Assembly: GCA_031362565.1 (NCBI GenBank)
Contig: JANLSU010000101.1
Location: 1 to 64,000, forward strand
Reading direction: 5' to 3'
Length of the DNA: 64,000 nt
From: a bacterium
Lineage (GTDB): Bacteria; Krumholzibacteriota; Krumholzibacteriia; G020349025
The position numbers were made by a program, and so were the translations under genes. This document shows, piece after piece, positions 13,665 to 32,230 of the stretch. The stretch's first letter is position 1. Every line of letters begins with the position of its first letter. The notes below the pieces were generated by a model. The model made no database searches and had not been told where the DNA came from. It was given only the letters and a program-made list of their open reading frames with translations.

Positions 13665-14900
13665 TTACTCGAAGCGGAGTGCGACGATCGGATCCTTGCG
13701 GGCCGCCTGCTGCGCCGGGTAGAGACCGAAGACGACGCCGACCGTGCCCGAGATGCCGAACGACACGAGGACCGAGATCGGCGACACGACCGTGTCCCAC
13801 TTGGCGAACAGGTTGATGGCGAGCGCCATGCCGGCGCCGAGCAGGATGCCGATGATGCCGCCGCTCACCGCGATCAGCACCGTCTCGTTCAGGAACTGAC
13901 CGAGGATGTCGCGCTGGGAAGCGCCCAGAGCCCGCCGGATGCCGATTTCCTTGGTCCGTTCGGTGACCGTCGCCAGCATGATGTTCATGATGCCGATGCC
14001 GCCGACCAGCAGCGACAACGCCGCGATGGACCCCATGACGATGTTGAAGATGCGCTGGGTGCGCTGGCTCTGCGCCAAGAGTTCATCGGGAATGAGGACC
14101 TCGTAGTCCTTGACGCCGTAGTGCCGGCGCTCGAGCACCCGCCGCACGAGCACCGCCGCGGGCACGACGAAGGCGGCATTCCGGACCTGGACGGCGATTT
14201 CTTCCACCTGGTCGGGATAGTCGTCGTCGGTAAAGCGCTTCAGCGCCGTCGCCGCCGGGATATAGACGTCGCGATTGATGTTGCGCAACTTGATCGCCGC
14301 CGTCTTGCCCTCTTTGAAATTCTTCTGGCCCATGACGCCGACGACTTCGAAGTTCTCTTCGCCAATCTTGAGCGACTTGCCGATCGCCTCCCCGATGCCG
14401 AAGATCTCGCGGTGAACTTCCGAGCCCAGCACGCAGACCCGCGCCGCGGTCTTTTCGTCCAGGTACGAAATGAAACGGCCGCTCGACGCCCGCGCGTTGG
14501 TGATCTCGTCGTACATGTCATTGACGCCGACCACTTTGATTCCCTCGGGCCGCTTGGCGCCCAGGTAGACCTCGGCTTCGATGAACTTGATCGGTGAAAC
14601 CGCGCTGGCATAGGGCACCTTGTCGGCGAGATCGCGCGCGTCCTGCCAGCAGAGCCCCTCGGAGACCGTTTCTTCGTTCTCCTGTTGCTCGACGGTCTTC
14701 TCCGCCTTCTTGATGCGGATGTTGTTGGTGCCAAGCAACCGGATCTGTTCCAACGTCTCGCGGCGCGCACCCTCACCAATCGACATCATGGAAATCACCG
14801 CGGCGACGCCGAAAATGACGCCGAACATCGTCAGCAGCGTACGGAGTTTGTGCCGCACGAGGTTCTTCACCCCGGAAGACAGCATCTCACGAACATCCAT
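13665..14900 (-). CDS. MacB/FtsX-family ABC transporter permease
   Basis: LRTLLTMFGVIFGVAAVI and VGGIGIMNIMLATVTERTKEIGIRRALGA motifs. Confidence 0.95.
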   Translation of the reverse strand: MDVREMLSSGVKNLVRHKLRTLLTMFGVIFGVAAVISMMSIGEGARRETLEQIRLLGTNNIRIKKAEKTVEQQENEETVSEGLCWQDARDLADKVPYASAVSPIKFIEAEVYLGAKRPEGIKVVGVNDMYDEITNARASSGRFISYLDEKTAARVCVLGSEVHREIFGIGEAIGKSLKIGEENFEVVGVMGQKNFKEGKTAAIKLRNINRDVYIPAATALKRFTDDDYPDQVEEIAVQVRNAAFVVPAAVLVRRVLERRHYGVKDYEVLIPDELLAQSQRTQRIFNIVMGSIAALSLLVGGIGIMNIMLATVTERTKEIGIRRALGASQRDILGQFLNETVLIAVSGGIIGILLGAGMALAINLFAKWDTVVSPISVLVSFGISGTVGVVFGLYPAQQAARKDPIVALRFE

Positions 14901-14910
14901 GTCGTGCCTC

Positions 14911-15642
14911 CTAAGCTTCCTCGCGCCAGCCGGTGCCGGTCACGGCCGGCCGGGGCGCGCTCTTACGGCTGCCGGTATCGCGCTCCACGACACCGTCGCG
15001 CATCGAAATCACCCGTTCGCTCCATTTGGCCACTTCCGGATCGTGGGTCACGAGGACGAGTGTCGTGCCACCTTGGTGCAGCTTCTCGAAGATGCGCAGA
15101 ATCTCGATTCCGGTCGCCGAATCCAGGTTTCCGGTCGGTTCGTCGGCCAGAATCAGCGGCGGTGCGTTGACGAGTGAACGGGCAATTGCCACACGCTGGC
15201 ACTCGCCGCCCGAGAGTTCGGTCGGCCGGTGCTCGTGGCGGTGCCCCAACCCGACCGCGTCCAAGACTTTCTGGGCCCGGTCACGCCGTTCCTCGCGCGG
15301 CACGGCGGCGTATACCAGCGGCAGTTCGACGTTCTCGACCACCGTCAGCTGCGGAATCAGATTGAAGCTCTGGAAAATGAAGCCGACCTTGCGATTGCGC
15401 AAGCGCGACATTTCCACGTCCAACAGAGTCTCGGCGGCGGTGCCGTCGAGCAAATACCGTCCCGTGGTCGGCCGGTCGAGACAGCCGAGGATGTGCATGA
15501 GCGTCGACTTGCCCGATCCCGACGGACCCATGATGGTGACAAACTCGCCGTAGTCGATCTGCAGGCTGACGCCTTTCAGTGCGGCGACTTCGTTGTCACC
15601 CATGCGGTAGACACGACGCATGTCCTGCACGTCGATCAGCAT
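14911..15642 (-). CDS. ABC transporter ATP-binding protein (LolD/MacB type)
   Basis: GPSGSGKST Walker A, LSGGECQR signature, ILADEPTGNLD. Confidence 0.96.
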   Translation of the reverse strand: MLIDVQDMRRVYRMGDNEVAALKGVSLQIDYGEFVTIMGPSGSGKSTLMHILGCLDRPTTGRYLLDGTAAETLLDVEMSRLRNRKVGFIFQSFNLIPQLTVVENVELPLVYAAVPREERRDRAQKVLDAVGLGHRHEHRPTELSGGECQRVAIARSLVNAPPLILADEPTGNLDSATGIEILRIFEKLHQGGTTLVLVTHDPEVAKWSERVISMRDGVVERDTGSRKSAPRPAVTGTGWREEA

Positions 15643-15654
15643 GGTGCTGCTCCT

Positions 15655-16827
15655 TCAGCTCGGCTGTCCCAAACAAACCTTGTCACCGGGCTTCAAGCCC
15701 GAACGGATGACCACGAACTTGTCGTTGCTGGCGCCGCATTCCACGACCACGCGGTGCGACTTACGTCCACGCTTGAGGTAGGCGACCGTCTTGCCGTCTT
15801 CGTTGAACACGGCTTCGACCGGCACGTAGGTGACGTCCTTCAACTCGTCGATGAGAATTTGGGCGTTCGCCGACAAACCGGGACGCAGGCGCGGATCGGC
15901 GTCCAGCACATCGATGGTGACCTCGAACACCTTGACGCCGGTGCGGCGGCCCGACACTTTGCTCACCTTGTGCTCGGCCAGATTGCCGACCGTCGCCACC
16001 TTGCCCTTGAACTTCATGTCCGGCACGGCGTCGAGCCCGATCGTCACCGGCTGGCCCGGCTGGATCTTTTGGACGTCCATTTCGTTGATCTCGGTTTCGA
16101 CCTGCATGGTCGAGATGTCCGGCAGGTACATGAGCGGCTGGCCCTGGAACGGTGTATCGCCGACCCCGACCTTCTTGCCGTCTTCCGGGCGCCCGACGTT
16201 GGCGTACACGACGAGTCCGGCCATCGGCGCATAGACCGCATTGGCTTCCAGCTTGTGCTTCATTTGGTCGAGCCCACCATGGGCGAACTGGACGTTGGAT
16301 TTCTCCTGGTCGACCGCCGCGTCGTAGGACGCCGTCCTGGACTTGAGTTCGAGGTAGGCAAGACGGGCTTCCTCGACTTCGCTGTCCATGGCGAAGCCCT
16401 TCTTCTTCAACTCGAGCAATGATTGGTAGTTCTTATTGGAGGACTCTTCCTTGAAGTGCTGCGCCTCGAGATCGCTCTCGGCCTTGCGCAGAGAAGCCAC
16501 CGCACGCGAAACCGCGGAGTTTTGCTCGTCGATGCCGATCTTGTACTTCTCGGATTCGAGTTGCACGATCAGCTCGCCGGGTTTGACCCACGACCCTTCC
16601 TTGGCAAGGAACAGAATGAGCCGGTCGTTCGGCGCCCCGATCGTCGCCGAGCGGGTGGCTTTGAGTTCGCCGACTTCGTTCAGCGTCAGGGTCAAGTCGC
16701 CGTGTGTGACGTCCGCCGTCGGCAGGTCGATTTCGTTACCGCTGGAAGCGGCAATTCGCCACCCGACGAGCGCCACGACCACGACGGCGGCGAGAATCCG
16801 GAACCACATTGTGCGCAGGATCTGCAT
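15655..16827 (-). CDS. MacA-like periplasmic adaptor (membrane fusion protein)
   Basis: N-terminal TM anchor, lipoyl-like halves, coiled coil, LRPGLSA and GLKPGDKV motifs. Confidence 0.92.
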   Translation of the reverse strand: MQILRTMWFRILAAVVVVALVGWRIAASSGNEIDLPTADVTHGDLTLTLNEVGELKATRSATIGAPNDRLILFLAKEGSWVKPGELIVQLESEKYKIGIDEQNSAVSRAVASLRKAESDLEAQHFKEESSNKNYQSLLELKKKGFAMDSEVEEARLAYLELKSRTASYDAAVDQEKSNVQFAHGGLDQMKHKLEANAVYAPMAGLVVYANVGRPEDGKKVGVGDTPFQGQPLMYLPDISTMQVETEINEMDVQKIQPGQPVTIGLDAVPDMKFKGKVATVGNLAEHKVSKVSGRRTGVKVFEVTIDVLDADPRLRPGLSANAQILIDELKDVTYVPVEAVFNEDGKTVAYLKRGRKSHRVVVECGASNDKFVVIRSGLKPGDKVCLGQPS

Positions 16828-16949
16828 GTCGTCACCTCGGTCGGTTGGAGTCGCTCCATCAATGATTGTGCAAGATGCGCTGACGCGGAGCGTGCGTCGT
16901 GGCGCCGAAAACAAAATTGGTCGATTGGCGATGAACTGTGCGGTCGCGC

Positions 16950-17543
16950 TTACTCCGGAACCGGCGTCTTGTTCTTGGTGCTTTCGTCGCACACAACCGC
17001 GACGCCGAGCACGACGAGGCGGTGCAGAGAAGCGTCGACCGCTTCGATGCGACCTGTGATCTCATCCTCGTCACTGTTCTTCTCCGGTTTCGGATCGAGG
17101 CGCTTGATTTCGATCTCGTCGGCGAGCAGCGTCCCGTCCTTTTGGATCTGCCCTTCGGCCTCGACGCGGTCGCCTTGCCGCAGTTCCGAGAAGGCGACAT
17201 GCCGTCCGGGGCCGCCCTGTATTTCGGTCCGGTGGTTCGTGACCACCTGCAGTCCGTTGCCCATCGTCAGGCGCTTGCGCGCCACATCGAGCACCGTGAC
17301 CGTACCCTTGACCTCGACCTCGTCCAGATCACCGCGCAGCACCTTGATCTCGCTCGCCCGGACGACCTGGCCCGCACCCAACGGGCCTTCAACCTTGACC
17401 CAGACGCCTTTCGCGAGGCGTGGAAACCATTCGCCGAGCGGCGGCCGCCGGCTTTCGCCGCGGGCAGGGGCCACGACGGCAATGGCGAGCAGCGCCGCGG
17501 CGATCCAGTTGCTTGTGCGTGCCTGCTGCAAGGATCGCCGCAT
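16950..17543 (-). CDS. DUF5666-repeat secreted protein
   Basis: Signal peptide; repeated 'G.v..vD......v.G..v..d..T' units; LRQGDRVEAEG...LLADEIEIK. Confidence 0.75.
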   Translation of the reverse strand: MRRSLQQARTSNWIAAALLAIAVVAPARGESRRPPLGEWFPRLAKGVWVKVEGPLGAGQVVRASEIKVLRGDLDEVEVKGTVTVLDVARKRLTMGNGLQVVTNHRTEIQGGPGRHVAFSELRQGDRVEAEGQIQKDGTLLADEIEIKRLDPKPEKNSDEDEITGRIEAVDASLHRLVVLGVAVVCDESTKNKTPVPE

Positions 17544-17645
17544 TCCAGTTCGACTTCCGCTCGGGTCCGGGCCGCGGGCACCCCCCACGACTCCCTGATG
17601 CTACGGCCTCCGGTCCAAAGCGTTGTCATCCCGGCGTCCCGCGCG

Positions 17646-17663
17646 TGTAACAAGTCTGTAACA
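17646..17663. promoter_or_regulatory. OmpR/PhoB-type direct-repeat box
   Basis: TGTAACA-agtc-TGTAACA with an 11-bp period, upstream of the DUF5666/MacAB genes. Confidence 0.55.
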
Positions 17664-17675
17664 CCGCCGGCGGCC

Positions 17676-18134
17676 TCAAGCCTCGATCTCACAATCCTCG
17701 TCGCAGCGCACCAGGAAGCCCATTACGGACAGTGTCCGCGCGTGTGGATCCATGGCCGTAATGGCACTTTCGATCTGGTCCATCTCGTCCGGCGTCCGTG
17801 ATTTAGTCTTGATCTTCACCGGCTCGAACCGGCGCCCATCGAGAGCGCGCCCCTTGGTCTTGACGCGCGTTCCAGGCTGGATCTCCTCCAGGCGCAGTGC
17901 CTGCTTGTCCAAGCCCTTCATTTCGACGCCATTGCCGATTGCGACCGCGAGCCCGAGGATGCGGAGGGTTCCCGACGCCGCATCGGCGCTCTCCACCATC
18001 GCTTCGATCTCGTCCATGTCGCCGTCGCTCTTGATCGAAATCGTCTGGGCGCGAAACGCACCGTCGGCGAACGCGCCTTCGACGCTGATGCGCATACCGA
18101 TCCGCAAATCGCTGAAGTCGTAGAAACCTTGCAT
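17676..18134 (-). CDS. DUF5666-repeat protein
   Basis: LRIGMRISVEG...AQTISIK repeat units; AAGGAG RBS. Confidence 0.75.
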   Translation of the reverse strand: MQGFYDFSDLRIGMRISVEGAFADGAFRAQTISIKSDGDMDEIEAMVESADAASGTLRILGLAVAIGNGVEMKGLDKQALRLEEIQPGTRVKTKGRALDGRRFEPVKIKTKSRTPDEMDQIESAITAMDPHARTLSVMGFLVRCDEDCEIEA

Positions 18135-18198
18135 CCGCTGTCTCCTTTGCCTTGCCCGTCTCGAACCTCGTTGCCCCGTTGGCTGATGCCGGTACAGG

Positions 18199-19449
18199 TC
18201 AGCGCCGTACGAGCGCCGTCGTCGCCGCCAGATCCGCCGCGCGCCGTGCATTGGCGGCCCACGTGCGCTCGCGGTGCGTCCATTCGCGGCCGCGCTCGGC
18301 GCGTCCGAGCGCCGTCTTTGGATCCGCCAGCACTGCTTCGATGGCTTGCGCCAACGACGCCGGGTCGCCCGGTACCGCCGGCTCGACGTAACCCGCTTCG
18401 ACGAGATCGGTAATCTGGCCGAGACGCGAAGCCACGACCGGCTTCCCGGCGGCCAGGGACTCGTAGACCTTGAGCGGCGAGAAATAAAAGTCCTCGGCCG
18501 GCAGATACGGCGCCACCGTCAGATCCATTGCGTCCAGCAGTTCCGGCACGCGGGCGTGATCCACGGCGCCCGTGAACACGACCGCACCGTCCAGGCCGCG
18601 TGACCGCGCCGTGGCCCGGAGCGCGTCACCCTTGGGACCATCGCCCACCAAGAGCAACCGAGCCGTGGGCCAGCGCGGATGCAGCAGTGTGAAGGCGTCC
18701 AGCAACACGTCGGTCCCGTGCCAGCTCTTCAAGCTGCCGACAAAGCCGATCACCGGGCCCAAGCCCAAACCGAGTGCTTGGCGGACGCGCGCCCCTTGGC
18801 CGGCGGCCGCTTCAAAGCGTTCGACGTCGACCCCGTTCGCGACCACATGGACGCGATCGCGCGGTGCACCCTCGGCGCAAGCCCGGGCAGCGAGTTCGGC
18901 GGAAACCGCCAACATGGCATCGGTCTCGCGCCAGACGCGCGCCTCGACGGCGCGCGCCACGTCGCCCAAGTGCAAACCGCGGGCGCGTTCCTGTTCGAGA
19001 CAGAGCGGCGCGTTCACTTCGAGCACATGCGGCACACCGAGCGCCCGCGCCAAGCCCAGTCCGCCGGCGCCAAAGAGTGCATAGCGTTCGTAGACGAAGT
19101 CCGCACCGAAGTCGCGCAAGCGTGGCGCTGCGGCTTCGAGCAACTGGTTGTAGAGAATGTTGCGGACTTCTTGCGCGACTCGGGACGGATGTCCGGCAGC
19201 GGTCGGCCCGAAGGCGCGATCGGCGCGCCGGAGTGCATCGAGAGCCGGCAGGTGCGGTTCGAGATCCACCGGATCGAGCACCGACAATTGAAAATCGGCA
19301 TTGCCGGCGCGTTCGATGGCCGGCGACAACACTTGCACCGTGTGGCCAAGCCCGGCGAAGGCGTTCGCCATCGCCCGCAGGTGAATCGACGCGCCCTTGT
19401 GCCCGTAGACCGGGACGCCGAAGTCGCTGCACACGTAGAAGATCCGCAT
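18199..19449 (-). CDS. Glycosyltransferase family 4
   Basis: GHKGASIH, FVYERY, LEVNAPL, GFVGSLKSWHG and FYFSPLKVYE motifs. Confidence 0.93.
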   Translation of the reverse strand: MRIFYVCSDFGVPVYGHKGASIHLRAMANAFAGLGHTVQVLSPAIERAGNADFQLSVLDPVDLEPHLPALDALRRADRAFGPTAAGHPSRVAQEVRNILYNQLLEAAAPRLRDFGADFVYERYALFGAGGLGLARALGVPHVLEVNAPLCLEQERARGLHLGDVARAVEARVWRETDAMLAVSAELAARACAEGAPRDRVHVVANGVDVERFEAAAGQGARVRQALGLGLGPVIGFVGSLKSWHGTDVLLDAFTLLHPRWPTARLLLVGDGPKGDALRATARSRGLDGAVVFTGAVDHARVPELLDAMDLTVAPYLPAEDFYFSPLKVYESLAAGKPVVASRLGQITDLVEAGYVEPAVPGDPASLAQAIEAVLADPKTALGRAERGREWTHRERTWAANARRAADLAATTALVRR

Positions 19450-19457
19450 CGAAGAAC

Positions 19458-20975
19458 TCAGCCCTTCAAGGTGGCGAGCGGCCGGACCCGCACCACGGGT
19501 TGTGCAATCTCGAAGCCGCGCATCGTGTCGATGACTTTGCGAATGTCTTTGAACGACCCCGGTGCCTGTTCGCCGATGTTCATCGTGCCGGCGCGGTAGA
19601 GCCGGATTTCGCGCGCCTTCATGTCGGCCTCGACGGCCGCCTCGGACCACTGCGCCATGGCCTCCGGCTTGTCGAGCACCCGCCCGGCGCCGTGGTTGGC
19701 GGAATGGAACGTCGCGGCATTGCCTTCGACGCCGACGCCGACGTACGAGTCGCTGCCCATCGAACCCGGGACCGGAATCGGTTGGCCGGTGTGCGAGAAA
19801 ATCGGATGCCCGGCGCAGCGCGACGGCGGCATCGCGACGTTGGCTCCATGGCGGTGCACCCACAACGGTTCGCCGCCGTGCATTTCCTGTTGAATCGTCA
19901 CATGCGAGCAATCGAACAAGAGCGGCATCGCGAGCGACGGATCGGCGAAGGTCGAGCGCACCGCGGTGCGCAGCGCCTCGGTGATCGCCATCCGGTTCAC
20001 GAAGCCGAAGTTGGCGGCGGCGTACACGGCGCGGATGAAGCGCCGGCCTTGGTACGAGTCGGCTGGAATCGTGAAGAACTGCCGGTGTGCGAACATGAAC
20101 TTCCAGATGAGCGACAGATCCTGCATCGACGGCCGCGCATGACGCAGATGGAATTGCGCCTTGTCCCAATCGAACGCCAGGCGTTCGCCGAAGGCCTCGG
20201 CACGGGCGTGCGTCGAGTAATAACGCATCGTCAGTCCGCCGACGGCGCCGGAGCCGGTGTGCATCATGAAGAGCACCTTGCCGAGCCCAAGTCCCAGCCG
20301 GCGCGCTTTGTCGGGGTCGAGAATTTCGACGATCTCCTGGGCTTCCAGGAAATGGTTGCCGGCGCCCATCGAGCCGAATGCCCGCCGCGCCTTCTTGATG
20401 GCGGCATCCGGCACCGCGTCCATGATTTCGTCCGGATCGATGTCCTGGCCGGCGAACATGCTGCCTTGCCGTTCGATGAAGTCGAGTTCGCCGGCGTCGA
20501 GCCCGAAATGCTCGCGGGCCCAAGTGGCGCCCTCGGTGAGGGCGCGCTTGACGTCCTTCTTCTTCAACACCGCGTCGCGTTGCGGCGGAATCGGCACGGT
20601 GCGTTGTAATTCGGCATACAGGGCGTCCAGCATCGGACCGGTGCAGGCACTCGCCGGCAAGTCGGTCGCCACCATGCGCATGCCGCAATTGAGGCCCTTG
20701 TCGATAGCGAACGGAATGAACCGGTCGCGGGTCGCGAGCACGATGCCCGTCGGGGCCGGATTGCGGCCTTTGTAGTGCACGTCGGGCATCGCCACGATGG
20801 GATGCTCGATGCCGGCAATGCGGGCCATTTGCGTCAGTTCGGCGAGCGCGTTCTGCCCCGGCATGATGTCGGGGGTGACGAAGAGGTGCACCGGCGTGCG
20901 CGCGCCGGCACCCGGCGGCAGCACGATGGGCGACGCCGCGGCCGGGATATTTTCGGTTGTGATGCGGTCGTTCAT
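19458..20975 (-). CDS. rtcB: RtcB-family protein (divergent RNA-ligase homolog)
   Basis: MPDVH, NCGMR, GNHFLE, HTGS, PGSMG, HGAGR and C-terminal LKG motifs; an alternative start at 21002 overlaps the upstream stop. Confidence 0.9.
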   Translation of the reverse strand: MNDRITTENIPAAASPIVLPPGAGARTPVHLFVTPDIMPGQNALAELTQMARIAGIEHPIVAMPDVHYKGRNPAPTGIVLATRDRFIPFAIDKGLNCGMRMVATDLPASACTGPMLDALYAELQRTVPIPPQRDAVLKKKDVKRALTEGATWAREHFGLDAGELDFIERQGSMFAGQDIDPDEIMDAVPDAAIKKARRAFGSMGAGNHFLEAQEIVEILDPDKARRLGLGLGKVLFMMHTGSGAVGGLTMRYYSTHARAEAFGERLAFDWDKAQFHLRHARPSMQDLSLIWKFMFAHRQFFTIPADSYQGRRFIRAVYAAANFGFVNRMAITEALRTAVRSTFADPSLAMPLLFDCSHVTIQQEMHGGEPLWVHRHGANVAMPPSRCAGHPIFSHTGQPIPVPGSMGSDSYVGVGVEGNAATFHSANHGAGRVLDKPEAMAQWSEAAVEADMKAREIRLYRAGTMNIGEQAPGSFKDIRKVIDTMRGFEIAQPVVRVRPLATLKG

Positions 20976-21001: not shown

Positions 21002-22072
21002 TCAGGCATTCGCCCCGGCGCCGGCGCGTTCGAGCACCGCACGCACCACGGGATCCACGCCTTGGGTGCGATCGATCCCGATCTCCCAGCGGCCACATTG
21101 CGTGACCAGTGCCCGCAATGTCGCGGCACGGCGCTCGAGCGACTGCGGCACCGGCCAGGCGACATCCAGGGTCGCGGCGAACCAGTGGTAGTCGTTCACT
21201 TCACGCGTCAGCTCGTTGAAGGCGATCAGGAACTGCACGCAGCGGTCGACTTCCAGCGGCCGCACGTAGCTCTGGTGGGTGAAGCGCGGCATGAACAACG
21301 CACTCGCTTCCACCGAGTCGACGACCGCCGAGCGCCGCACGTGGTACACATTCTTGTGATTGGCGCCATCCGGAATCTCGCACGGAGCCAGAATCGCGCG
21401 CCGCGCCCCCAGCAGTTCGACGCTCTGATCGTCGAGCCGGATCGGTTCGTAGCACGAGTAGATGCGCCGGTCGTCGTGGAAGATGAGATTCTCCGACACC
21501 AGCCGGGTACCCTCGTGCGCCAGGAGCGACACGCCGGTCGTCGTCTTGCCGACGCCACCGACGCCGCCAATCACGACCCCGTGGCCGCCGACATCGATGC
21601 CCGAGGCGTGCATCAAATACAGCCCGCGGTAGTGTTCCAGATACCAGGCCATCGGGTGAAACACGAACCAGCTCATCAAGCCGAAGAATTTCTTGTAACG
21701 GTAGTTGGGTTCGGCTTCGACCTTGGCAGCGCGCGGCGCGTACCGGTAGCGCGCCTCGATGTGCAAGTGTTCGCCGTCCATTTGGAAGCGCATCGTCAGA
21801 TTCTTGATCCGCAGCAGGTTCGTCCACACGAGTTCGTTGGGCCCGGCGAGCAGGCGCTTGCCGACGCGGTCGAGCTGGCTCTGGCCCGGAAACTCGAGGA
21901 TGGAGTCGTCGGTGTCCTCGCCCTCGAACCAAGCGACGTGCACTGTCACCTGGGCATCGGCCGCGGTGACGATGTGATCCGGCAGGTGCATGCGCACATA
22001 GTCGAGTAAATCCTCGTATTCCGATTCGATGCGCAGGCGTACGCCCTGCATCTCGACGCAGACGTCCTTCAC
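21002..22072 (-). CDS. HprK-related P-loop NTPase/kinase
   Basis: LMHASGI...GGVGGVGKTT Walker A in an HprK-like context; GTG start overlapping the upstream stop, with AAGGAGG RBS. Confidence 0.75.
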   Translation of the reverse strand: MKDVCVEMQGVRLRIESEYEDLLDYVRMHLPDHIVTAADAQVTVHVAWFEGEDTDDSILEFPGQSQLDRVGKRLLAGPNELVWTNLLRIKNLTMRFQMDGEHLHIEARYRYAPRAAKVEAEPNYRYKKFFGLMSWFVFHPMAWYLEHYRGLYLMHASGIDVGGHGVVIGGVGGVGKTTTGVSLLAHEGTRLVSENLIFHDDRRIYSCYEPIRLDDQSVELLGARRAILAPCEIPDGANHKNVYHVRRSAVVDSVEASALFMPRFTHQSYVRPLEVDRCVQFLIAFNELTREVNDYHWFAATLDVAWPVPQSLERRAATLRALVTQCGRWEIGIDRTQGVDPVVRAVLERAGAGANA

Positions 22073-22692
22073 GCTTTCCTCCTTGGCGGCGCGACCGGGG
22101 CGTAACGATGTTCGATGCACTCCGGATCCGCGCCCGGGCGAATCTCGAGCACGCGGTCGTGCTTGTGCTTGAACGCCAGACATTCTTCCAGGGAGCGGCC
22201 CAAGAGCAGCCCCCACAAGACACGGTTGGTGGCGCGGTGCCCGACGATGAGCACCGTGTCGCCGGCGTAGCACGCGCCGACCTCGGCGACAAAGGGCACG
22301 AGGCGCGCCTGCAGTTCGGCATACGTTTCGCCGCCCGGCGCCCGGAAACCGAGCGGATCGGCCTTGCGCGCCGCCCAGAGCGCCTGCACCGACGGATCGG
22401 GATCGCCCGCCACGTGGCCTTCGAGGCTGCCGTAGGACATCTCGTCCAGTTCGGGGCGGGCCTGTACTTCGAGATGCCGCGCTTGCGCGAGCGGCCGCGC
22501 GGTGTCGCGGGTGCGGCGCAGCGTGCTCGTGTAAATCGCCGCCAGCGGCTCGTCGGCGAGCAACGCCGCCAGTGCCGCCGCGTGCTCGGCGCCGAGCGGC
22601 GACAAGCGCGTGTCGGTACTGCCCTGCAAGCGGTGCTGCAAATTCCACTCGGTCTCGCCATGCCGGGCCAGGAAGATGCGCTTCGGTCTCAT
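22069..22692 (-). CDS. Histidine phosphatase (phosphoglycerate mutase-like) family protein
   Basis: ARHGETEWN, STLRRTRDTA, E..YG..EG, PGGET and VGH motifs. Confidence 0.94.
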   Translation of the reverse strand: MRPKRIFLARHGETEWNLQHRLQGSTDTRLSPLGAEHAAALAALLADEPLAAIYTSTLRRTRDTARPLAQARHLEVQARPELDEMSYGSLEGHVAGDPDPSVQALWAARKADPLGFRAPGGETYAELQARLVPFVAEVGACYAGDTVLIVGHRATNRVLWGLLLGRSLEECLAFKHKHDRVLEIRPGADPECIEHRYAPVAPPRRKA

Positions 22693-23987
22693 GTGCGGCT
22701 CGCTTCCCGCGCCGGCTCGAGGCCGGCAGCGAATTCCAGCACCCGCCGGGCGCGCGCCTTCCAACTGTATTCGGCGACGCTTTGGGCCGCATTCATCACG
22801 AGCCGGGCGGCGCGGCTGCGATCCGAGCGCAGTGCCGCGAGTCCCGCCGCGAGCGCCTCCGGATCGTCCGGCCGCACGAGCCAGGCGTTGTCGTCATGGC
22901 GCAGGATCTCGCGCGTCGACGGCAGGTCGGTGGCAACGATGGGCACACCGGCCCGCATCATCTCGAAGGCTTTGAGCGGCGACGTAAAGTATTCGGCTTC
23001 CACGAATCCCTCGCGCGGCAACGGAATGACGCCGACGCGCGCCCGCGCCATGTACGCCGCGACGCGATGCGGCGCGACCTGGCCTTCGAGGGTGAGCCGG
23101 TCGGTGATGCCGAGTGCCGCGGCCACCGTCTCGACGCGTTGCAAGTCTTCGGAGGTGTTGCCGCCGACGACCGTGAGGTGGGCATCGGGCAGGCGCACGA
23201 GAGCGCGCAGCAGGCCGTCGATCCCCTTCCAGCGATACAACTGTCCCACATACAGGAGATCCAGGTCGCGGCCCGTGTCGTCCAGCGTGCCGGCGATCTG
23301 CATGCGTCCTGTCGCATCGACGGGAATCCGGGTGCCGTTCGGCACTACACAGAGTGGCGCGTGCGCCGGAAAATGTTCCTCGAGCATGCGGCGCGCGTTG
23401 TCCGAAGTGCAGATGATGCCGTCGATTCCGGCATACGTCCGGGCTTCGAGAGCGCGGCGGCGTTCGACCTTTTCTTGGACGACCGGATCCTGGAGCGACC
23501 GGCCGCGTTCTTCCTGGTGGGTCGCCTTGGTGAGAAACGCCAGCTTGTGGACTTCGAACACGGTGCGCAAATCGGCCGGCGGGCGCAGGCCGCGCACCAG
23601 ATCCAGAAGTTCGAGGCCGGCCGGATCGCGCGTCATGAGCACGGTCGGGCCCTTGGAGTGGCGCCGCAGGAAGGTCTGCAAGTAGACGCGGAAGTACGGG
23701 CCGCGCCAGTCGTTGAAATCCGTCGCCAGCGGCAACGACAACGACACGAAACGCAGCCGTGGATGTTCGGCCTCACCGTAGTACGTGAAGCAGTCGCGCC
23801 GCGACGCGGTGAGACGGCGCACCACCAAGAGGACGTCGGCGCCCTCACGCGCCATTTCGAGGCAGGTGTTGAAACTCTGGATCGAATTGGCTTTCGGCGA
23901 CGGGAAGTCAATGCGGCTGAAATACAACACGCGTGGCCGGGTTTGACCGGCGGCCGAAGCCGCCCCTGCTGATTGGCGCTGTGACAT
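22689..23987 (-). CDS. Glycosyltransferase family 4
   Basis: ANSIQ, FEVH, YVGQLYRWKG, FTSPLKAFE and YSWKARA motifs. Confidence 0.92.
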   Translation of the reverse strand: MSQRQSAGAASAAGQTRPRVLYFSRIDFPSPKANSIQSFNTCLEMAREGADVLLVVRRLTASRRDCFTYYGEAEHPRLRFVSLSLPLATDFNDWRGPYFRVYLQTFLRRHSKGPTVLMTRDPAGLELLDLVRGLRPPADLRTVFEVHKLAFLTKATHQEERGRSLQDPVVQEKVERRRALEARTYAGIDGIICTSDNARRMLEEHFPAHAPLCVVPNGTRIPVDATGRMQIAGTLDDTGRDLDLLYVGQLYRWKGIDGLLRALVRLPDAHLTVVGGNTSEDLQRVETVAAALGITDRLTLEGQVAPHRVAAYMARARVGVIPLPREGFVEAEYFTSPLKAFEMMRAGVPIVATDLPSTREILRHDDNAWLVRPDDPEALAAGLAALRSDRSRAARLVMNAAQSVAEYSWKARARRVLEFAAGLEPAREASRT

Positions 23988-24168: not shown

Positions 24169-24879
24169 CTACACCGCCTCGTCGGCGGCGGCGGTCTCGA
24201 ACACATAGCCGGCGCCGCGTTGGGTCAAAATCCAACGCGGCGCATCGGGCTCGTCCTCGATCTTCTTGCGGAGACGAGCAATGTGGTTGTCGACGGTGCG
24301 GGTGGTAGGAAACACGTCGTAGCCCCAGATCTCGTTCAGGAGTTGCTCGCGCGACAGCATTTCGCCCCGGTGCTCGATAAAATACGCCAGGATACGGAAT
24401 TCCCGGGTCGAGAGCTCCAGGTCGTGGCCGCCTTTGGTCACCCGCTGGCGTTTGAAGTCGACCTCGATGTCGCCGAACCGGAACATCTCGCGCACCGGTG
24501 CCTTGCCGGCAACCGGCGCCCGCTTCAGCACGGCTTTGATACGTGCCAATAATTCGCGCACGCTGAATGGTTTTGTTACATAGTCGTCTGCCCCCAGCTC
24601 GAGCCCCAGGACCCGGTCGTTCTCGTCGCCGCGCGCCGTCAGCAGGATGATGGGCGTCGTGCGGCCGCTATCGCGCAGGCGTTTGGCGATCTCGAGTCCG
24701 CTCATTCCCGGCAACATGACATCGAGCACCAGGAGCGCGTGGTCGCCATCGCGGGCGCACTCGAATCCCTTCTTGCCATCGGTCGCGGTATCGACCACGT
24801 AGCCCTCGCCCTCCAGTGCGCTGCGTAGGCCTTGCACCAGACTCGGGTCGTCTTCGACCACCAGAATGCGACTCGTCAC
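24169..24879 (-). CDS. OmpR/PhoB-family response regulator
   Basis: ILVVEDD, LDVMLPG, GADDYVTKPF receiver motifs and RTVDNHIARLRKKIE winged HTH. Confidence 0.96.
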   Translation of the reverse strand: MTSRILVVEDDPSLVQGLRSALEGEGYVVDTATDGKKGFECARDGDHALLVLDVMLPGMSGLEIAKRLRDSGRTTPIILLTARGDENDRVLGLELGADDYVTKPFSVRELLARIKAVLKRAPVAGKAPVREMFRFGDIEVDFKRQRVTKGGHDLELSTREFRILAYFIEHRGEMLSREQLLNEIWGYDVFPTTRTVDNHIARLRKKIEDEPDAPRWILTQRGAGYVFETAAADEAV

Positions 24880-27008
24880 GACTTGGCCTCCTCGGGTACG
24901 GACCCAGCGGCGGGCGGCGTCGAATCGGTTGCCGGCTCCGCCGGCAGCCAGACCGTGAACCGCGCTCCACGCCCCGGCGCGCTCTGCACTTCGACCCGGC
25001 CGCCGTGAGCCTCGGCGATCCGGCGCACGAGCGTCAACCCGAGCCCGACACCTTGCCGCGGGCTCGAAAGCCGCTGGTCGACGCGATAGAACTCTTCGAA
25101 GATCCGCTGCTGCTCGGACGGTTCGATGCCGATGCCGCGGTCCTCTACCTGAATCGCCACCGCGGCGCCGCGCCGCAGGACGCGCACCGCGATCCAGCGC
25201 TCGTCTTCCGAGTACTTGACGGCGTTGGTGAGCAGGTTCAGGACCACCTGGCGCAACGCGTCGCGGTCGGCCCGCACTTCCGGCAGATTCGGTTCCACTT
25301 CGACGCTGTAGGTGAAGCCGGCGGCCTCCGCCTGCGGCCGGAAATCCTCCGCGGTCGCGCTGACGAGCGGGCCAATTTCCTCGTACTCGAACTGGAAGCG
25401 GCGCGTGCCGCGCGTGAAATTCGCGAAGTCGAGCACCGCATCGATGAGCCGTTCGAGACGGCCGCACTCGCCGCGGATGACCGCTAACTGGCGCCTCCGC
25501 TCCGTGTCGCCGAGCCGCTCGCCGTTCATTTCGAGCATTTCGGCATACATCCGAATGGACGCCAGCGGGGTGCGCAATTCGTGCGAGACGTTCGACACGA
25601 AGTTGGTCTTGAGACCGGCGAGCCGGCCCTCACGGCGCACCGCGGTCAGCACCAGGACGGCACCGGCGACGATGGTCAGGAGCAGGACGATGATGACGGC
25701 GAGGAAGGCGCGTGTCCGCACATCGACGGCGTTGACGGCGGTGCCGGCGCGCGGCACCACGACGACATTCCAAAACTCGAACGGCTCGCCGAGGTTGGCG
25801 CGCAAGACATCCGGCGTTGCCGAACCCGCGGCCGGCACCGCCGGCACCGCCGCGCCGATCACGTGCCGGCCGGCATCGTCGGTAATCGCCAGTTCCGCTT
25901 CTTGCGACAGCTGCAGTTGCTTCAGGAATCCCGGCAACACGGCCGACGACAAATGCGGCAGGTCGATCACCAATCCGGCGATCCCGGCGATGCGGTTCTG
26001 GTTGGCGCTGGGCAGGAAGCGGTACACGACCAAGAAGGGCTCGGCATCGATGACGTCCGACAAATAGCGCAGGCGCGGCGAGTGCGCTTGTTCGTCGAGA
26101 ACCGCGCGCAGCAAGCGCCGGTCGAGCTTGCGCGCCAAGAACGCATCACCCAAGCGGCGCGGGGCATTCCAGGCCGCGACACGGGCCGCGAGCGCCGCCG
26201 ACACGGACGCCGGCGGGCGCGGCGCGAGCCGCACCACGCCTTCTGCGGCGCGGTCGCGGAAGAATTCGATTTGCGATGGTGCGAGTTCCGAAGCGTGTTC
26301 GAGGGTGGCATCGCCGAGCGCCGCAAACTCGGGCGCCGCCGCCGAATCGTCGAGGGCTTCCAGAGCCCGCGCCGCGATCAGACCCGCCACCAGATCGAGG
26401 GGCTGATTGTCGAAGTCGAATGCATCGGGGTACTCGGACCGCAACCGCCGGGCGGTCGCCAGTGCCTGGCGCGATGCGCCGGATGCGAATTGAGCCCGCG
26501 CCAAGCTGGCGAGGGCGATGGCCCGCAACCGCGGGTTGAGCGCCTTGGACGCGAGGGCCGTGTACTCTGCCACCGCCACGGCGGGATCCTCGTACTCCGC
26601 CGAATCGGCCACCGCGAGCCGGGCCTCGAAGTCGCGCGCTTCGGCGGCGTCCGGGATCGGCAAACGCTGCATCGTGCCGATCCCGCTGCTTTGGCCGTTG
26701 GCCTTTAGAGTGAACGCGGCGCGCACGAAGCGCTCGGCCCGGAGCGCCGAATCTGCGGCCGCGGTGCTATCCGCGGTCAACAAGTCGGACCACGCGACCT
26801 CGAGTTCGGCAAGTTCGTAGTGGACGACGCGCGCCGCGTAATCGCCGTAGCGCTGGTAGTTCTCGAGCACGCGACCGCTCTGCGCGCGGCGCTCGGAATC
26901 GACGGCCCGCAGTGTGAACCATGCGAGCAACAGGCTCGGAATGAACACGAGCCCCAGGAAGGCGGCCACGAGCCGCACCTGCGTGCTCTGCCATCCCCGC
27001 AGTCGCAA
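24876..27008 (-). CDS. Membrane sensor histidine kinase
   Basis: Two TM helices, SHELRTPL H-box, NLLTNAVKY, DRGIGI and GLGL boxes; TTG start with AAGGAG RBS. Confidence 0.94.
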   Translation of the reverse strand: MRLRGWQSTQVRLVAAFLGLVFIPSLLLAWFTLRAVDSERRAQSGRVLENYQRYGDYAARVVHYELAELEVAWSDLLTADSTAAADSALRAERFVRAAFTLKANGQSSGIGTMQRLPIPDAAEARDFEARLAVADSAEYEDPAVAVAEYTALASKALNPRLRAIALASLARAQFASGASRQALATARRLRSEYPDAFDFDNQPLDLVAGLIAARALEALDDSAAAPEFAALGDATLEHASELAPSQIEFFRDRAAEGVVRLAPRPPASVSAALAARVAAWNAPRRLGDAFLARKLDRRLLRAVLDEQAHSPRLRYLSDVIDAEPFLVVYRFLPSANQNRIAGIAGLVIDLPHLSSAVLPGFLKQLQLSQEAELAITDDAGRHVIGAAVPAVPAAGSATPDVLRANLGEPFEFWNVVVVPRAGTAVNAVDVRTRAFLAVIIVLLLTIVAGAVLVLTAVRREGRLAGLKTNFVSNVSHELRTPLASIRMYAEMLEMNGERLGDTERRRQLAVIRGECGRLERLIDAVLDFANFTRGTRRFQFEYEEIGPLVSATAEDFRPQAEAAGFTYSVEVEPNLPEVRADRDALRQVVLNLLTNAVKYSEDERWIAVRVLRRGAAVAIQVEDRGIGIEPSEQQRIFEEFYRVDQRLSSPRQGVGLGLTLVRRIAEAHGGRVEVQSAPGRGARFTVWLPAEPATDSTPPAAGSVPEEAKS

Positions 27009-27040: not shown

Positions 27041-28207
27041 TCAGCGGTTGTCGTGCCCAGCCGCGATGATGCGCCGGTACAGCGTTTCAAGAGTCGCGGC
27101 GCGGGCGGCGTTCGAAAACGTCGCGACCGCCAATCGGTGGCCATTCCGGCCCAGCTGGCGCGCCTGTGCCGGATCCGCCAGCAGATCCACGATCGCGCGC
27201 GCCAATGCCGGCGCATCGCCCGGCGGTACGAGCCGGCCCGTTTCGCCGTCGCGAACGAGTTCTCGATTGCCACCGACGTCGGTACAAACGACCGGCCGCG
27301 CCATGGCCAAAGACTCGCGCATGACGCCCGACAATCCTTCCCACGCGGTCGCGGATGCACTCACCGATACATCGAGCGCGGCCAGGACATGCGGTACATC
27401 CTGCCGCGGGCCGGTGAAGCGGAGGTGCGATTCGAGCCCTACGCCGTCACGCGCGCCCAATTGGCGCGCCAGCGCTTCGAGACCGGCACGCGCCCCGTCG
27501 GGATCCGGCCCGACGATCGCGAAATAGGTTTCGGGCGCGACGCGCAAGACTTGCGATGCGGCGTCCAGAAACACGTCGTGTGATTTGTAATGGCTGAGTT
27601 TGGCGACCAGACCCACGAGCCGCGCGCCCGCGGTAGCGCCGTTCAACAACTCGCGCCGTACGGCGCTGCCGTCGACGCCCGGATCGAAGCGGTCCGGATC
27701 GTAGCTCCCATAGATGACTTCGATGCGCCCGGCTGGAATGCCCGCCGCTATGAGGACATCGCGGATGTGCGCCGCGACGACGACATGGGCCCGCACCGCC
27801 GGATGCTGCATTTTTTCCACTTCGGCTGCCTGCAACGGCCGGCTCTGGCCGCGGTTCACGACCACGGGTGGCAGTTCCATATCGCGGCACGAACGGAACA
27901 GGGCTTTGTACGTCGCGCGGTGGGTATGGATGACATCGAAGTGTTCCCGGGCCACGAACTCCCGCAGTTCGGAGCACGGTTCCTTCTTGTCGAGCGGCAA
28001 ACGCACCAGCTTCATTCCGGCCCGGGTGACTTGCTCGAGCGTGCCGTCGTGCGGGCTGGGTGCGGTGTGAAACACGCACGTTACATCGTGGCCACGCGCT
28101 TGCAGGCCCCGCGCCAGCAACACCATTTGCACGGCGCCGCCGGATAGGATCTCGGAGTGGTCGGCGAGTTGCAGAATCTTGAGTGGCTGCATCGGCGCCC
28201 TTTTCAT
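27041..28207 (-). CDS. Glycosyltransferase family 4
   Basis: SGGA, KSHDVFL and EGLSGVMRESLA..PVVCTDVGGNRE motifs. Confidence 0.92.
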   Translation of the reverse strand: MKRAPMQPLKILQLADHSEILSGGAVQMVLLARGLQARGHDVTCVFHTAPSPHDGTLEQVTRAGMKLVRLPLDKKEPCSELREFVAREHFDVIHTHRATYKALFRSCRDMELPPVVVNRGQSRPLQAAEVEKMQHPAVRAHVVVAAHIRDVLIAAGIPAGRIEVIYGSYDPDRFDPGVDGSAVRRELLNGATAGARLVGLVAKLSHYKSHDVFLDAASQVLRVAPETYFAIVGPDPDGARAGLEALARQLGARDGVGLESHLRFTGPRQDVPHVLAALDVSVSASATAWEGLSGVMRESLAMARPVVCTDVGGNRELVRDGETGRLVPPGDAPALARAIVDLLADPAQARQLGRNGHRLAVATFSNAARAATLETLYRRIIAAGHDNR

Positions 28208-28249: not shown

Positions 28250-29497
28250 TCAGGTGCGGACGATCGACGCGGCATTCTGCTCGGCGATCGTGACGAGGCG
28301 TGTGGCGCAATCGGCAGCGCCGGCTTCGAGCCGCGTCAAGACGCGATGGGCGCGTTTCGCGACCAACGACACTGCCAAATGCCAGAACCAACGGTTCGAC
28401 GCGAAGCGCGGACTGGCGCTGATATAGGCCGAACGGAATGCCGCGACGGCCGATTCCATTTCCCGTTGCGGCCGGCCAAAGACGTAGCCCTTGTAGTAGA
28501 GATGGCTCGCGAAGCGCGCCAGGTCGTACATCGGATCGCCCCAGCACGCGTTGTCGAAGTCGATGAGCCGCGGTACGCCGCCATCGACCAGAAACTGCGC
28601 CGGATGAAAGTCGCCGTGCAAGAGCGCCGGCTCCGGTTCGGGAAACGGCGCTCCCAGCATGGTCACGATGCGCTCGAGCCGCGGCCGCAGGGCCGGGTAT
28701 GCGGCGGCGAGTTCGGCGCTGGCTTCTTCGAAGTGCCGCCACTCGCGCGCGCCGTATGCCACCGTGTCGAGCGCCGAGCGGGTCGAAGCGGCGAGATTCG
28801 TTTCGTGCAGCGTCGCCAGTTGCCGGGCCATCGCCTGCATCACATCACGGGTCAGATGCGGGTCGGGATTCGACCAGAAACCGACGCCGGGAACATGCTC
28901 GAGGACGAGCAGCCGGCGCCCCAGATCGACATTGAGAACGCGCGGCACCGGCACACCGGCCGCCAGCAAGGCGCGCATCACGGCGCCGACCCGTTCGACG
29001 CGGTCATCGTGGTAGAGCTTGGCGATCGTTTCCTCGCCACCATAGCAGCCGGCGAGGACGCAATTCATCGTCGGCACGTAGCTCACCACACTCCATTGCC
29101 CTTCACGCCAGACGTTGGTCAGTTGCTCGAGGCGCGGATCGGCCGGAAAACGCCAGTACACCATGTCGAGTTCGGCGACGAACCCGGTCGGTGCGCCCGG
29201 GCCGCGCTTTTGCAAGCGATCGACATAGCGGCGCAGCGAGCGCGCCGCCGGCAAGAACTCGGCGTAGACATAGTGCGGCCGGCCGTTGTCGGCAGGCTCG
29301 CCTTCCTTCCAGAGCCGGTACAGGACGCGCGTCGACTTTCCCGGTTTGTAGCTGACGCGCTCGATGGCGCAGCGCTCCCACGCCGTGCCGTCGCGCGGCG
29401 GCAAGAAGCGTGTGAAGGCCTCGAGCATGAGTTCGGGCGTCAGCGCGCGCGGCAGCACGGGCAGGTCGAGCACTCCATCCGGCGCCGCGTATCTCAC
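28250..29497 (-). CDS. APH/choline-kinase-like phosphotransferase
   Basis: HGDFHPAQ and LIDFD motifs, GDPMYDLARF. Confidence 0.88.
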   Translation of the reverse strand: MRYAAPDGVLDLPVLPRALTPELMLEAFTRFLPPRDGTAWERCAIERVSYKPGKSTRVLYRLWKEGEPADNGRPHYVYAEFLPAARSLRRYVDRLQKRGPGAPTGFVAELDMVYWRFPADPRLEQLTNVWREGQWSVVSYVPTMNCVLAGCYGGEETIAKLYHDDRVERVGAVMRALLAAGVPVPRVLNVDLGRRLLVLEHVPGVGFWSNPDPHLTRDVMQAMARQLATLHETNLAASTRSALDTVAYGAREWRHFEEASAELAAAYPALRPRLERIVTMLGAPFPEPEPALLHGDFHPAQFLVDGGVPRLIDFDNACWGDPMYDLARFASHLYYKGYVFGRPQREMESAVAAFRSAYISASPRFASNRWFWHLAVSLVAKRAHRVLTRLEAGAADCATRLVTIAEQNAASIVRT

Positions 29498-32210: not shown

Positions 32211-32230
32211 CGCGGTTTCCCTTCGGTGGA

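Follow-up and report, generated by a model that had tools for sequence, protein, structure and literature searches.

What does an RtcB protein do when its gene lies between a kinase gene and a glycosyltransferase gene? To our knowledge, the only role known for RtcB is the joining of nucleic-acid ends. We examined this question in a 64,000-nucleotide stretch of a Krumholzibacteriota genome (GenBank assembly GCA_031362565.1, contig JANLSU010000101.1, positions 1 to 64,000; hereafter the window), in which positions 19458–20975 of the minus strand encode a 505-amino-acid (aa) RtcB-family protein. RtcB enzymes form a covalent histidine–GMP from GTP, transfer the GMP to a phosphomonoester and allow a hydroxyl to attack the activated phosphate. 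The best reading of the sequence data is that the gene product is capable of catalysis and belongs to a distinct RtcB clade outside RNA-repair operons, and the pairing and fusion of this clade with a kinase in sugar-polymer clusters suggests that RNA-ligase chemistry is reused to form phosphate links in a cell-surface glycoconjugate. Stated for the clade as a whole, we hold with something short of even confidence that it has moved off nucleic acids and that, together with a kinase of the phosphoenolpyruvate carboxykinase (PEPCK)/HprK fold, it may use histidine–GMP to activate sugar or polyol phosphomonoesters for phosphodiester or GDP-activated links in exported glycoconjugates.

A complete RtcB protein with a remodeled active site

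The gene at 19458–20975 is real and encodes a member of the RtcB family. It lies in an open reading frame (ORF) spanning 19458–21098, a Shine–Dalgarno-like GAGGTGA precedes the ATG at 20975 from which the 505-aa protein is read, and a second possible start, the ATG at 21002, shares bases with the stop codon of the gene upstream. Residues 47–505 align with positions 2–426 of the 426-position Pfam RtcB profile (PF01139) with a score of 297.5 bits against a cut-off of 27. An AlphaFold2 model built with 53 homologues reached a mean predicted local distance difference test (pLDDT) score of 94.0, and Foldseek matched this model to the P. horikoshii RtcB–GMP–Mn complex 4dwq (E 6e-39, query-normalized TM-score (TMq) 0.80, 29% identity).

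Motifs were compared in a HMMER alignment to P. horikoshii RtcB (PhoRtcB) and in a MAFFT alignment with E. coli RtcB (EcoRtcB) and 23 canonical RtcB proteins from the same phylum. These alignments bore out a preliminary description of the locus both in the motifs it had listed as retained (NCG, GNHFLE, HTGS, PGSMG, HGAGR and the terminal KG) and in the substitutions it had named, with GYDINCG replaced by DKGLNCG, HTGSRG by HTGSGA, HN by HV, HRKGAT by HRHGAN and AYK by SFK. In structural work on RtcB, PhoRtcB Cys98, His234 and His329 hold Mn1, Asp95, Cys98 and His203 hold Mn2, Arg238 binds two phosphates of the 5′-OH strand, Asn202 contacts the 5′-OH, and the E. coli mutant R189A seals 200-fold more slowly (PMC8051266); a second study describes PhoRtcB Lys480 and Glu206 as reading the guanine and Asn330 and Mn2 as contacting the GTP γ-phosphate (PMC9745838). 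In the window RtcB, C97, H239 and H358 occupy the Mn1 ligand positions Cys98, His234 and His329 in aligned, invariant columns. At the Mn2 positions C97 and H208 (PhoRtcB His203) are present, the Asp95 column holds G94, and an aspartate, D92, lies two residues upstream. The nucleophile H428 sits in ANHGAGR in a further invariant column (PhoRtcB His404, EcoRtcB His337), and E211 and K504 stand at the guanine-reading positions Glu206 and Lys480. Elsewhere the site has changed: V359 fills the Asn330 column, and the Arg238 column (EcoRtcB Arg189) is a glycine (HTGSGAVG), so that the arginine that binds the 5′-OH strand is absent. The PhoRtcB Arg190 position retains a base (K195), Asn202 is retained as N207, and R432 is likewise kept.

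As judged from these alignments, the Mn1 site, H208, the nucleophile and the guanine readers are intact, and the window RtcB is predicted to keep what is needed for histidine–GMP formation and for GMP transfer to a phosphomonoester. The remodeling appears to be centered on the Mn2 and γ-phosphate side of the site, with new lysine or arginine residues at positions 69, 71 and 436. An earlier suggestion that GTP activation had been kept while RNA-gripping residues were remodeled therefore stands in part: GTP-binding and nucleophile residues are kept and other active-site positions have changed, but K195 and N207 are kept and the arginine loss is a subclade-level trait. The insertion reported after HTGS is also present, with 64 residues separating HTGS from IPADS compared to 35–37 in the 24 canonical rows, and it is modeled as two helices (residues 262–278 and 284–295) within a block of pLDDT 86–94. 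We also computed net charge over the aligned core and set it aside as too crude a guide to RNA binding, because the canonical mean is +6.7 and the clade-side value −0.8, but E. coli RtcB itself is at −8.

A shared signature and a supported branch

Most of the changes that had been taken as peculiar to the window protein are traits of a wider clade. The motif D-x-G-[ILVM]-x-C-G, in which the aspartate lies five residues before the cysteine and not three, occurs in 119/119 homologues longer than 400 aa among the best 120 of 578 matches. The metal-binding aspartate, earlier described as lost, is instead probably relocated by two residues; D92, a candidate Mn2 ligand, is conserved in all of these homologues and in 48/48 core clade rows. 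Comparison of 24 canonical rows with the 48 core clade rows yields 16 alignment columns that are near-fixed for different residues. These include, in window numbering and from canonical to clade, G to K at 69, G to D at 92, D to G at 94, R to K at 436, E to Q at 470 and Y to F at 475 (each in 48/48 clade rows), G to R at 71 and R to K at 195 (each in 45/48), and K to H at 376 (42/48). At the level of motifs, PDxHxGYG becomes PDxHxKxRN, HN becomes HV or HE, HRKGA becomes HRHGA or HRNGA, AYK becomes SFK, and the SR that follows HGAGR becomes DK. The HTGSR arginine is kept in most clade members and is replaced by G or T only in the window subclade, in Calditrichia rows and in a few others.

A quick IQ-TREE analysis places these proteins together. 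The tree held 79 rows (the window protein; three metagenome relatives; locus L036; 43 species-representative loci; 28 own-phylum loci, 23 of them canonical and five on the clade side; and E. coli), after exclusion of the fragments L003, L035, L058, L063, L072 and L079 and of L074 and L087, whose ORFs were not long enough. A branch with a Shimodaira–Hasegawa-like approximate likelihood ratio test (SH-aLRT) value of 98 has the 24 canonical rows on one side and on the other 55 rows, among them every kinase-linked RtcB. Because the root is a midpoint root only and several deep rows sit on long branches, the claim is limited to one side of a supported branch and does not extend to a rooted clade. 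The alignment and tree comparison suggested in the preliminary description thus finds the HprK- and glycosyltransferase-linked RtcB proteins together on one side of this branch, with fixed shared substitutions.

The window protein shares with canonical RtcB ligases (P. horikoshii PH1602, E. coli RtcB and human RTCB) the fold, the HGAGR histidine, the Cys/His/His Mn1 site, GNHFLE and the terminal guanine-reading lysine. It differs from them in the 16 signature columns of its clade, which include an apparent two-residue move of the Mn2 aspartate; in two features of its subclade, the missing 5′-OH-strand arginine and an insertion of about 27 aa; and in partners, which for this clade are a kinase and glycosyltransferases and not RtcA, RtcR, archease or PrfH.

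A kinase gene accompanies the clade across phyla

Five loci with RtcB proteins of 63–94% identity (L003 from a genome of the same family and L032–L035 from metagenomes) keep the order glycosyltransferase GT4b, histidine phosphatase, kinase, RtcB and glycosyltransferase GT4a as far as their short contigs reach, and L033 also has a response regulator upstream; synteny among such near relatives is expected at this close distance. More distant relatives were not returned by a single-protein scan of genome contigs, and were returned by an alignment-based scan of one genome per species, which gave 51 loci at 31–76% identity labeled KSB1, Calditrichia, Vicinamibacterales/Acidobacteriota, Planctomycetota, Eisenbacteria, Rokuibacteriota, Methylomirabilota, Omnitrophota and others. 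By tblastn, 41 of 46 informative loci, drawn from at least eight labeled phyla, have a same-strand relative of the kinase gene within 2 kb upstream of RtcB; this count overstates independence, because in several cases two loci come from one genome and certain rows are nearly identical. The spacing is less than 400 bp in 35 of these loci and 456–1890 bp in the other six; upstream DNA was too short to judge in five further loci.

Glycan genes recur around the pair. Within 10 kb of RtcB, a GT4a relative (38–59% identity over at least 250 aa) was found in 29/51 loci, at least one APH-fold gene in 36/51 and a relative of the response regulator (51–61% identity) in 24/51, and histidine kinase relatives occur in 26/51. 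Pfam annotation of six full loci recovered GT4, GT2, GT9 and GT28-like glycosyltransferases, DegT, an epimerase, UDP-glucose dehydrogenase, an ATP-binding cassette (ABC) exporter, MacAB–TolC and DUF5666, and contexts in other phyla also hold Wzx, Wzy and Bac_transf. Three deep-branching RtcB proteins from the phylum of the source genome (27–28% identity) sit behind a GT4 and a kinase gene. A survey of neighborhoods, one of the checks suggested at the outset, therefore locates linked RtcB proteins in glycan and kinase clusters across many phyla and not in RNA-repair operons. We rejected the histidine phosphatase as a conserved cassette member, since it accompanies RtcB in close relatives only (L003, L032, L033 and L035) and is absent from all of L037–L087.

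The abundance of GT4 genes bears on a shorter version of the chemistry, in which only the first two RtcB steps would be used: GMP would be placed on a kinase-made sugar phosphate, and a GDP-linked donor would be released for the GT4 enzymes, much as a pyrophosphorylase would do but by way of histidine–GMP. GT4 genes flank RtcB in the window and in most loci, the guanine contacts and nucleophile are retained, the arginine lost from the window RtcB is the one that specifically speeds the sealing step, and maltokinase and glucosamine kinase are among the solved relatives of the neighboring APH-fold proteins. Myxococcus xanthus RtcB3, a 5′-phosphate-capping paralogue, provides a precedent for divergence of this kind, as it is reported to guanylylate a phosphate end without sealing it, although the M. 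xanthus paralogues act on DNA and RNA ends (cited in PMC10630183). We nevertheless regard release of a GDP-linked donor as distinctly improbable: the arginine is kept in most clade members, ordinary nucleotidyltransferases could do the same job, and no datum here identifies the donor of the GT4 enzymes.

Several further genes recur in these loci. In four of the six loci with 456–1890 bp spacing, the gene between kinase and RtcB encodes a Kelch-repeat lipoprotein. KSB1-like and Calditrichia loci repeatedly carry Kelch-repeat genes within the cassette or next to it (L047 8500–10000, L048, L053, L056, L037 1–1197, L044 12689–13672 and L064 18836–20047), and the N-terminus of the protein looks lipoprotein-like by eye. 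A myo-inositol-1-phosphate synthase gene lies at most 4 kb upstream of RtcB in two loci labeled Planctomycetota and Gammaproteobacteria (L083 6251–7570 and L072 5261–6436), a hint that certain forms of the cassette may build with inositol phosphate. In the Vicinamibacterales locus L078 (17865–20646), two S-adenosylmethionine (SAM)-dependent methyltransferases carry a C-terminal DUF5666 domain, which stands alone in the window.

The partner kinase and its natural fusions

The conserved partner (HprKl) is a P-loop kinase-like protein of the PEPCK/HprK fold. Its sequence matches to known families are weak: Pfam Hpr_kinase_C aligns around the P-loop only, at 18.4 bits and below its cut-off of 33.3, TIGR00679 scores 17.1 bits against a cut-off of 240, and HprK-related kinases A and B score 33.9 and 32.9 bits (cut-off 200). 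A model built with 26 homologues reached a pLDDT of 92.8, and its best Foldseek matches were to ATP-PEPCK (both domains covered; E 5.5e-8, TMq about 0.5), with the catalytic C-terminal domain of HPr kinase/phosphorylase (HprK/P; E 1e-4) next. HprKl resembles both enzymes in its matching fold, its P-loop of GxxGxGKT type and the His-x-Ser motif that precedes it. It differs from HprK/P in scoring below the family cut-offs, in the lack of an HPr context and in forming a family of its own, whose profile retrieves 176 representative clusters at E ≤ 1e-30, and 472 when the threshold is E ≤ 1e-10, from a set of 1.84 billion representatives.

The kinase and RtcB also occur as one polypeptide. L068 encodes a kinase::RtcB fusion in a single 828-aa frame, the kinase part of the fusion P0111 is 34% identical to the window kinase (E 2e-56), P0115 and P0120 fall in the same length class as P0111, and P0129 and P0192 are confirmed by Pfam. 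Among ten long representatives of the kinase family scanned with Pfam, two were fused to RtcB, two to GT4 (P0124 and P0131, in both orders), two to GT2 (P0230 and P0251) and one to an ABC exporter (P0130), and three had no partner domain. These fusions are gene calls from assemblies in which single cases could be artefacts, an origin that their recurrence in several forms argues against. It is on these natural fusions that we base a putative physical association of RtcB with the kinase.

Precomputed Pfam annotations of the fused forms include PF27840, which carries the Atlas name ScmC; a literature search on ScmC returned only unrelated acronyms. This family, the weak relation of HprKl to HprK-related kinases A and B, and the best NCBIfam match of the APH paralogues in the window, the lanthipeptide kinase LxmK (weak, at 42.7 bits against a cut-off of 315), would fit a phosphorylated peptide or protein as the substrate. 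In such a pathway, akin to ribosomally synthesized and post-translationally modified peptide (RiPP) maturation or to protein phospho-glycosylation, kinases of the HprK and APH folds would act on Ser or Thr and RtcB would join the phosphate to a sugar or other hydroxyl. We find this very doubtful. In the window no PqqD/RRE gene or small precursor-like gene was seen beside RtcB, where the intergenic gaps are 26 and 8 bp, and over its full length the kinase fold matches PEPCK, which acts on small molecules, better than HprK/P. The APH paralogues, too, have solved relatives that are mostly small-molecule kinases (acting on macrolide, aminoglycoside, glucosamine, maltose and methylthioribose), and one neighboring DUF5666 protein (DUF5666b) has a hydrophobic, signal-peptide-like N-terminus by eye, unsuited to a target of cytoplasmic modification.

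Linked RtcB proteins may stand apart from RNA repair

The absence of rtcA, rtcR, archease and prfH genes near RtcB, recorded earlier for the window, extends to the whole source genome, which is 100% complete by marker genes. This genome has no match to RtcA (PF01137), archease (PF01951) or RtcR (PF06956), and for PrfH (TIGR03072) it has none above the cut-off and two sub-cut-off matches on other contigs. A canonical rtcB elsewhere in the source genome, which the preliminary description had proposed looking for, was not found, and the linked gene is its sole RtcB. In seven of nine other genomes tested (G006, G050, G057, G070, G210, G211 and G212), a canonical RtcB coexists with the linked one; in G210, G211 and G212 the second copy scores 534–601 Pfam bits versus 240–331 bits for the linked copy. 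The other two genomes, G208 and G209, have a linked RtcB without a canonical one. Within the phylum of the source genome, 112 of 208 genomes match the RtcB query and 96 do not, indicating that RtcB is not indispensable in the phylum.

These results bear most directly on an ordinary role, in which the protein would join or cap RNA or DNA ends and merely be co-regulated with an envelope glycan operon, for example in a stress regulon under the two-component system of the cluster. The window protein is a full RtcB with all chemistry residues present and is the only RtcB of its genome, and N207, K195, R432 and K436 keep nucleic-acid contacts or charges (PMC8051266). M. xanthus RtcB paralogues, moreover, differ in ligation and capping activity (PMC10630183). 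Such a role nonetheless seems unlikely to us in view of the kinase pairing in 41 of 46 loci across phyla, the fusions to a kinase that is itself fused to glycosyltransferases and an exporter, the coexisting canonical RtcB in most other genomes tested, the missing RtcA, archease and RtcR and lack of an above-cut-off PrfH, the 96 phylum genomes without a match to the RtcB query, and the loss of the strand-binding arginine in the window RtcB. If the protein is an RNA ligase after all, its tight coupling to envelope glycan synthesis needs explaining.

A candidate route to phosphate-bridged glycoconjugates

We tentatively propose, with confidence that comes near to even without reaching it, that the window RtcB carries out GTP-dependent activation of a non-RNA phosphomonoester in glycoconjugate assembly, with a phosphodiester as the end product. 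In this scheme the partner kinase, perhaps with the APH-fold kinases, would place a phosphomonoester on a sugar, a polyol or a growing glycoconjugate. RtcB H428 would accept GMP from GTP with manganese, as in all RtcB proteins, and the GMP would be moved onto the phosphomonoester to give R-O-P-P-G. A hydroxyl of a second sugar or other acceptor would then attack, yielding a phosphodiester and GMP, after which the GT4, GT28-like and GT-C enzymes would build further on the product and the ABC and MacAB transporters would export it. Gene context makes RNA a less likely carrier of the phosphomonoester than a sugar, polyol or glycan intermediate that the partner kinase would phosphorylate. We infer the substrate, the placement of the phosphate by the kinase, the transfer of GMP to it, the hydroxyl attack and the nature of the product. 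HprK/P can use pyrophosphate and RtcB guanylylation releases it; as pure speculation, the fused pair could recycle the pyrophosphate released by guanylylation.

Several results weigh against this proposal. We know of no RtcB that acts on a substrate other than nucleic acid, and other HprK-related kinases are tied to peptides. As the window gene is the sole RtcB of its genome, any need for an RNA ligase would fall on it, and residues used on RNA are kept in the clade, namely N207, K195, R432 and in most members the HTGSR arginine. The overstated independence of the locus counts has been described above, and in five informative loci the kinase gene is not upstream of RtcB. One of these, L037, lies on a contig that begins within a Kelch gene, so its kinase status is unsettled; in L040 and L050 the gene upstream resembles a purple acid phosphatase. 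The L072 locus comprises inositol-1-phosphate synthase, a GT28-like gene, an RtcB split over two frames, GT4, ABC genes and a trio of APH genes, and L082 has Bac_transf, RtcB, Wzx, a weak kinase-like match 3.3 kb downstream, GT4 genes and Wzy. The two RtcB pieces in L072 (8323–9703) overlap in different frames and may reflect a frameshift, a pseudogene or an assembly error. L036, the nearest outgroup of the window subclade (51% identity; 5590–14605), also lacks the kinase, its RtcB lying behind a 1363-aa GH116-family protein and facing a PMT_2-like gene.

A further point against the proposal comes from the kinase itself. The full-length kinase occurs in 7 of 208 phylum genomes, six with a linked RtcB, and the seventh, G003, which belongs to the same family as the source genome, has none (L104, contig G003:C51, 1077–18803; L091). 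There the kinase and GT4a adjoin in a single open frame of 798 aa, kinase first, within a cluster of a histidine kinase, response regulator, GT28-like glycosyltransferase, GT4d, APH7, ABC exporter, kinase, GT4a, DUF5666 and MacAB. RtcB and the extra APH paralogues (APH1–6) are missing together from this cluster, as are the histidine phosphatase, GT4b and GT4c. The kinase and core cluster can thus work without RtcB, which would make RtcB an added, downstream step.

Known pathways reach products of the proposed class by other means. In teichoic-acid-type and Stealth-type polymerase routes, the phosphate is activated as a CDP- or UDP-linked donor by nucleotidyltransferases. The proposed product resembles those of cytidine diphosphate (CDP)-alcohol and nucleoside diphosphate (NDP)-sugar routes, with a sugar or polyol joined through a phosphodiester, and the proposed activation differs in passing through a covalent enzyme–histidine–GMP and an R-ppG intermediate. 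Among the papers listed in the library searched, none, as judged by title and abstract, linked RtcB with HPr-kinase-like genes or glycan clusters, and source records name the homologues "tRNA-splicing ligase RtcB" or "RtcB family protein". Should the proposed chemistry prove correct, the pathway would be new in its own right: it would be a third route to such links beside NDP-sugar and CDP-alcohol chemistry, would provide the first non-nucleic-acid substrate of an RtcB and would show surface polymers being phosphate-bridged by a new enzymatic logic. It would also change the annotation of homologues now named tRNA-splicing ligase and give a function to a kinase family of 176 representative clusters. 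A test of the hypothesis would call for no more than the two proteins in purified form, GTP and a set of candidate sugar phosphates.

The gene array in the window

RtcB and its partner lie in an array of about 31 kb, running from about 44.5 to 13.7 kb entirely on the minus strand, that combines synthesis genes with export-type genes (Table 1). In the direction of transcription the order is PMT_2/TPR, GT28-like, GT4d, APH7, APH6, ABC exporter, APH5–APH4–APH3–APH2–APH1, GT4c, histidine kinase, response regulator, GT4b, histidine phosphatase, kinase, RtcB, GT4a, two DUF5666 genes, MacA, MacB ATPase and MacB permease. By called coordinates most gaps are below 70 bp and there are four 4-base overlaps; the widest spacings separate the regulator from GT4b (181 bp) and PMT_2 from the GT28-like gene (about 305 bp), and two starts in the DUF5666–MacA stretch are uncertain. 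The coordinates confirm the earlier account that RtcB is tightly packed between an HprK-like kinase, which ends 26 bp before its start, and a GT4 8 bp beyond its stop, in a unit with a histidine phosphatase and a second GT4.

Table 1. Genes and segments of the co-directional array, with positions in the window
Feature	Positions	Strand	Basis and remarks
PMT_2 (GT-C) membrane glycosyltransferase with TPR repeats	42217..44457	−	Pfam PMT_2, TPR; likely upstream end of array
GT28_C-like glycosyltransferase	40280..41911	−	Pfam Glyco_tran_28_C; same kind adjoins RtcB in L078, L083, L072
GT4-like glycosyltransferase GT4d	38952..40230	−	ORF list; tblastn match in L104; start approximate
APH6 and APH7	36908..38931 (APH6 36908–37852; APH7 37882–38931)	−	Pfam APH
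ABC exporter (transmembrane and ATPase domains)	34963..36849	−	Pfam ABC_membrane and ABC_tran; same kind in L078, L083, L072, L104
Five tandem APH-fold kinase-like genes	28250..34944 (APH1 28250–29428; APH2 29494–30885; APH3 30882–32210; APH4 32231–33577; APH5 33592–34944)	−	Pfam APH for APH1–4; ORF list and alignment for APH5
GT4 glycosyltransferase GT4c	27041..28207	−	Pfam
Sensor histidine kinase, long N-terminal sensor region	24876..27008	−	Pfam HisKA and HATPase_c
OmpR/PhoB-type response regulator	24169..24879	−	Pfam Response_reg and Trans_reg_C
GT4 glycosyltransferase GT4b	22689..23987	−	Pfam; conserved in L032, L033
Histidine phosphatase (branch 1)	22069..22692	−	His_Phos_1, 168 bits; 4-base overlap with kinase start
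PEPCK/HprK-fold P-loop kinase-like protein (HprKl), conserved partner of the RtcB clade	21002..22072	−	Weak Pfam, model, Foldseek, synteny
RtcB-family protein, HprK-linked clade, 505 aa	19458..20975	−	PF01139, full length; model; Foldseek to 4dwq
Segment coding RtcB residues 244–302, with insertion of about 27 aa after HTGS	20070..20246	−	HTGS–IPADS spacing; model helices
GT4 glycosyltransferase GT4a	18199..19449	−	Pfam Glyco_trans_1_4, Glyco_transf_4; starts 8 bp past RtcB stop
Two DUF5666 proteins	16950..18251 (17676–18251; 16950–17588)	−	Pfam DUF5666; tblastn relatives near RtcB in many loci
MacAB-like efflux set	13665..16992 (HlyD/MacA 15655–16992; ATPase 14911–15642; MacB permease 13665–14900)	−	Pfam; same set downstream of RtcB in L064, L104

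The seven APH paralogues share an invariant ATP lysine and DFD motif and differ at the catalytic site. The HGD motif is kept in APH1, APH3, APH6 and APH7, and APH2, APH4 and APH5 read HGT, HGA and HGS, each followed by F-[KR]. On this evidence the Asp-less paralogues may be pseudokinases or enzymes of another chemistry. Next to RtcB in KSB1, Calditrichia, Acidobacteriota and Planctomycetota loci, the APH form is likewise the Asp-less one.

An assignment of the cluster to anti-phage defense was dropped, because no PADLOC family was found at E ≤ 0.001 among the six proteins scanned (RtcB, the kinase, APH1, APH2, GT4a and DUF5666b). Elsewhere in the window, a separate glycan-type group at 57486–62617 on the minus strand comprises a hexapeptide acyltransferase, a Wzx-like flippase (Polysacc_synt_3) and a 1073-aa protein without a Pfam match. 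Directly downstream of the MacB genes, positions 10547–13534 of the minus strand encode a 995-aa secreted metallopeptidase of the M36/fungalysin-like type with P-domain, CarboxypepD_reg and FlgD_ig domains at its C-terminus.

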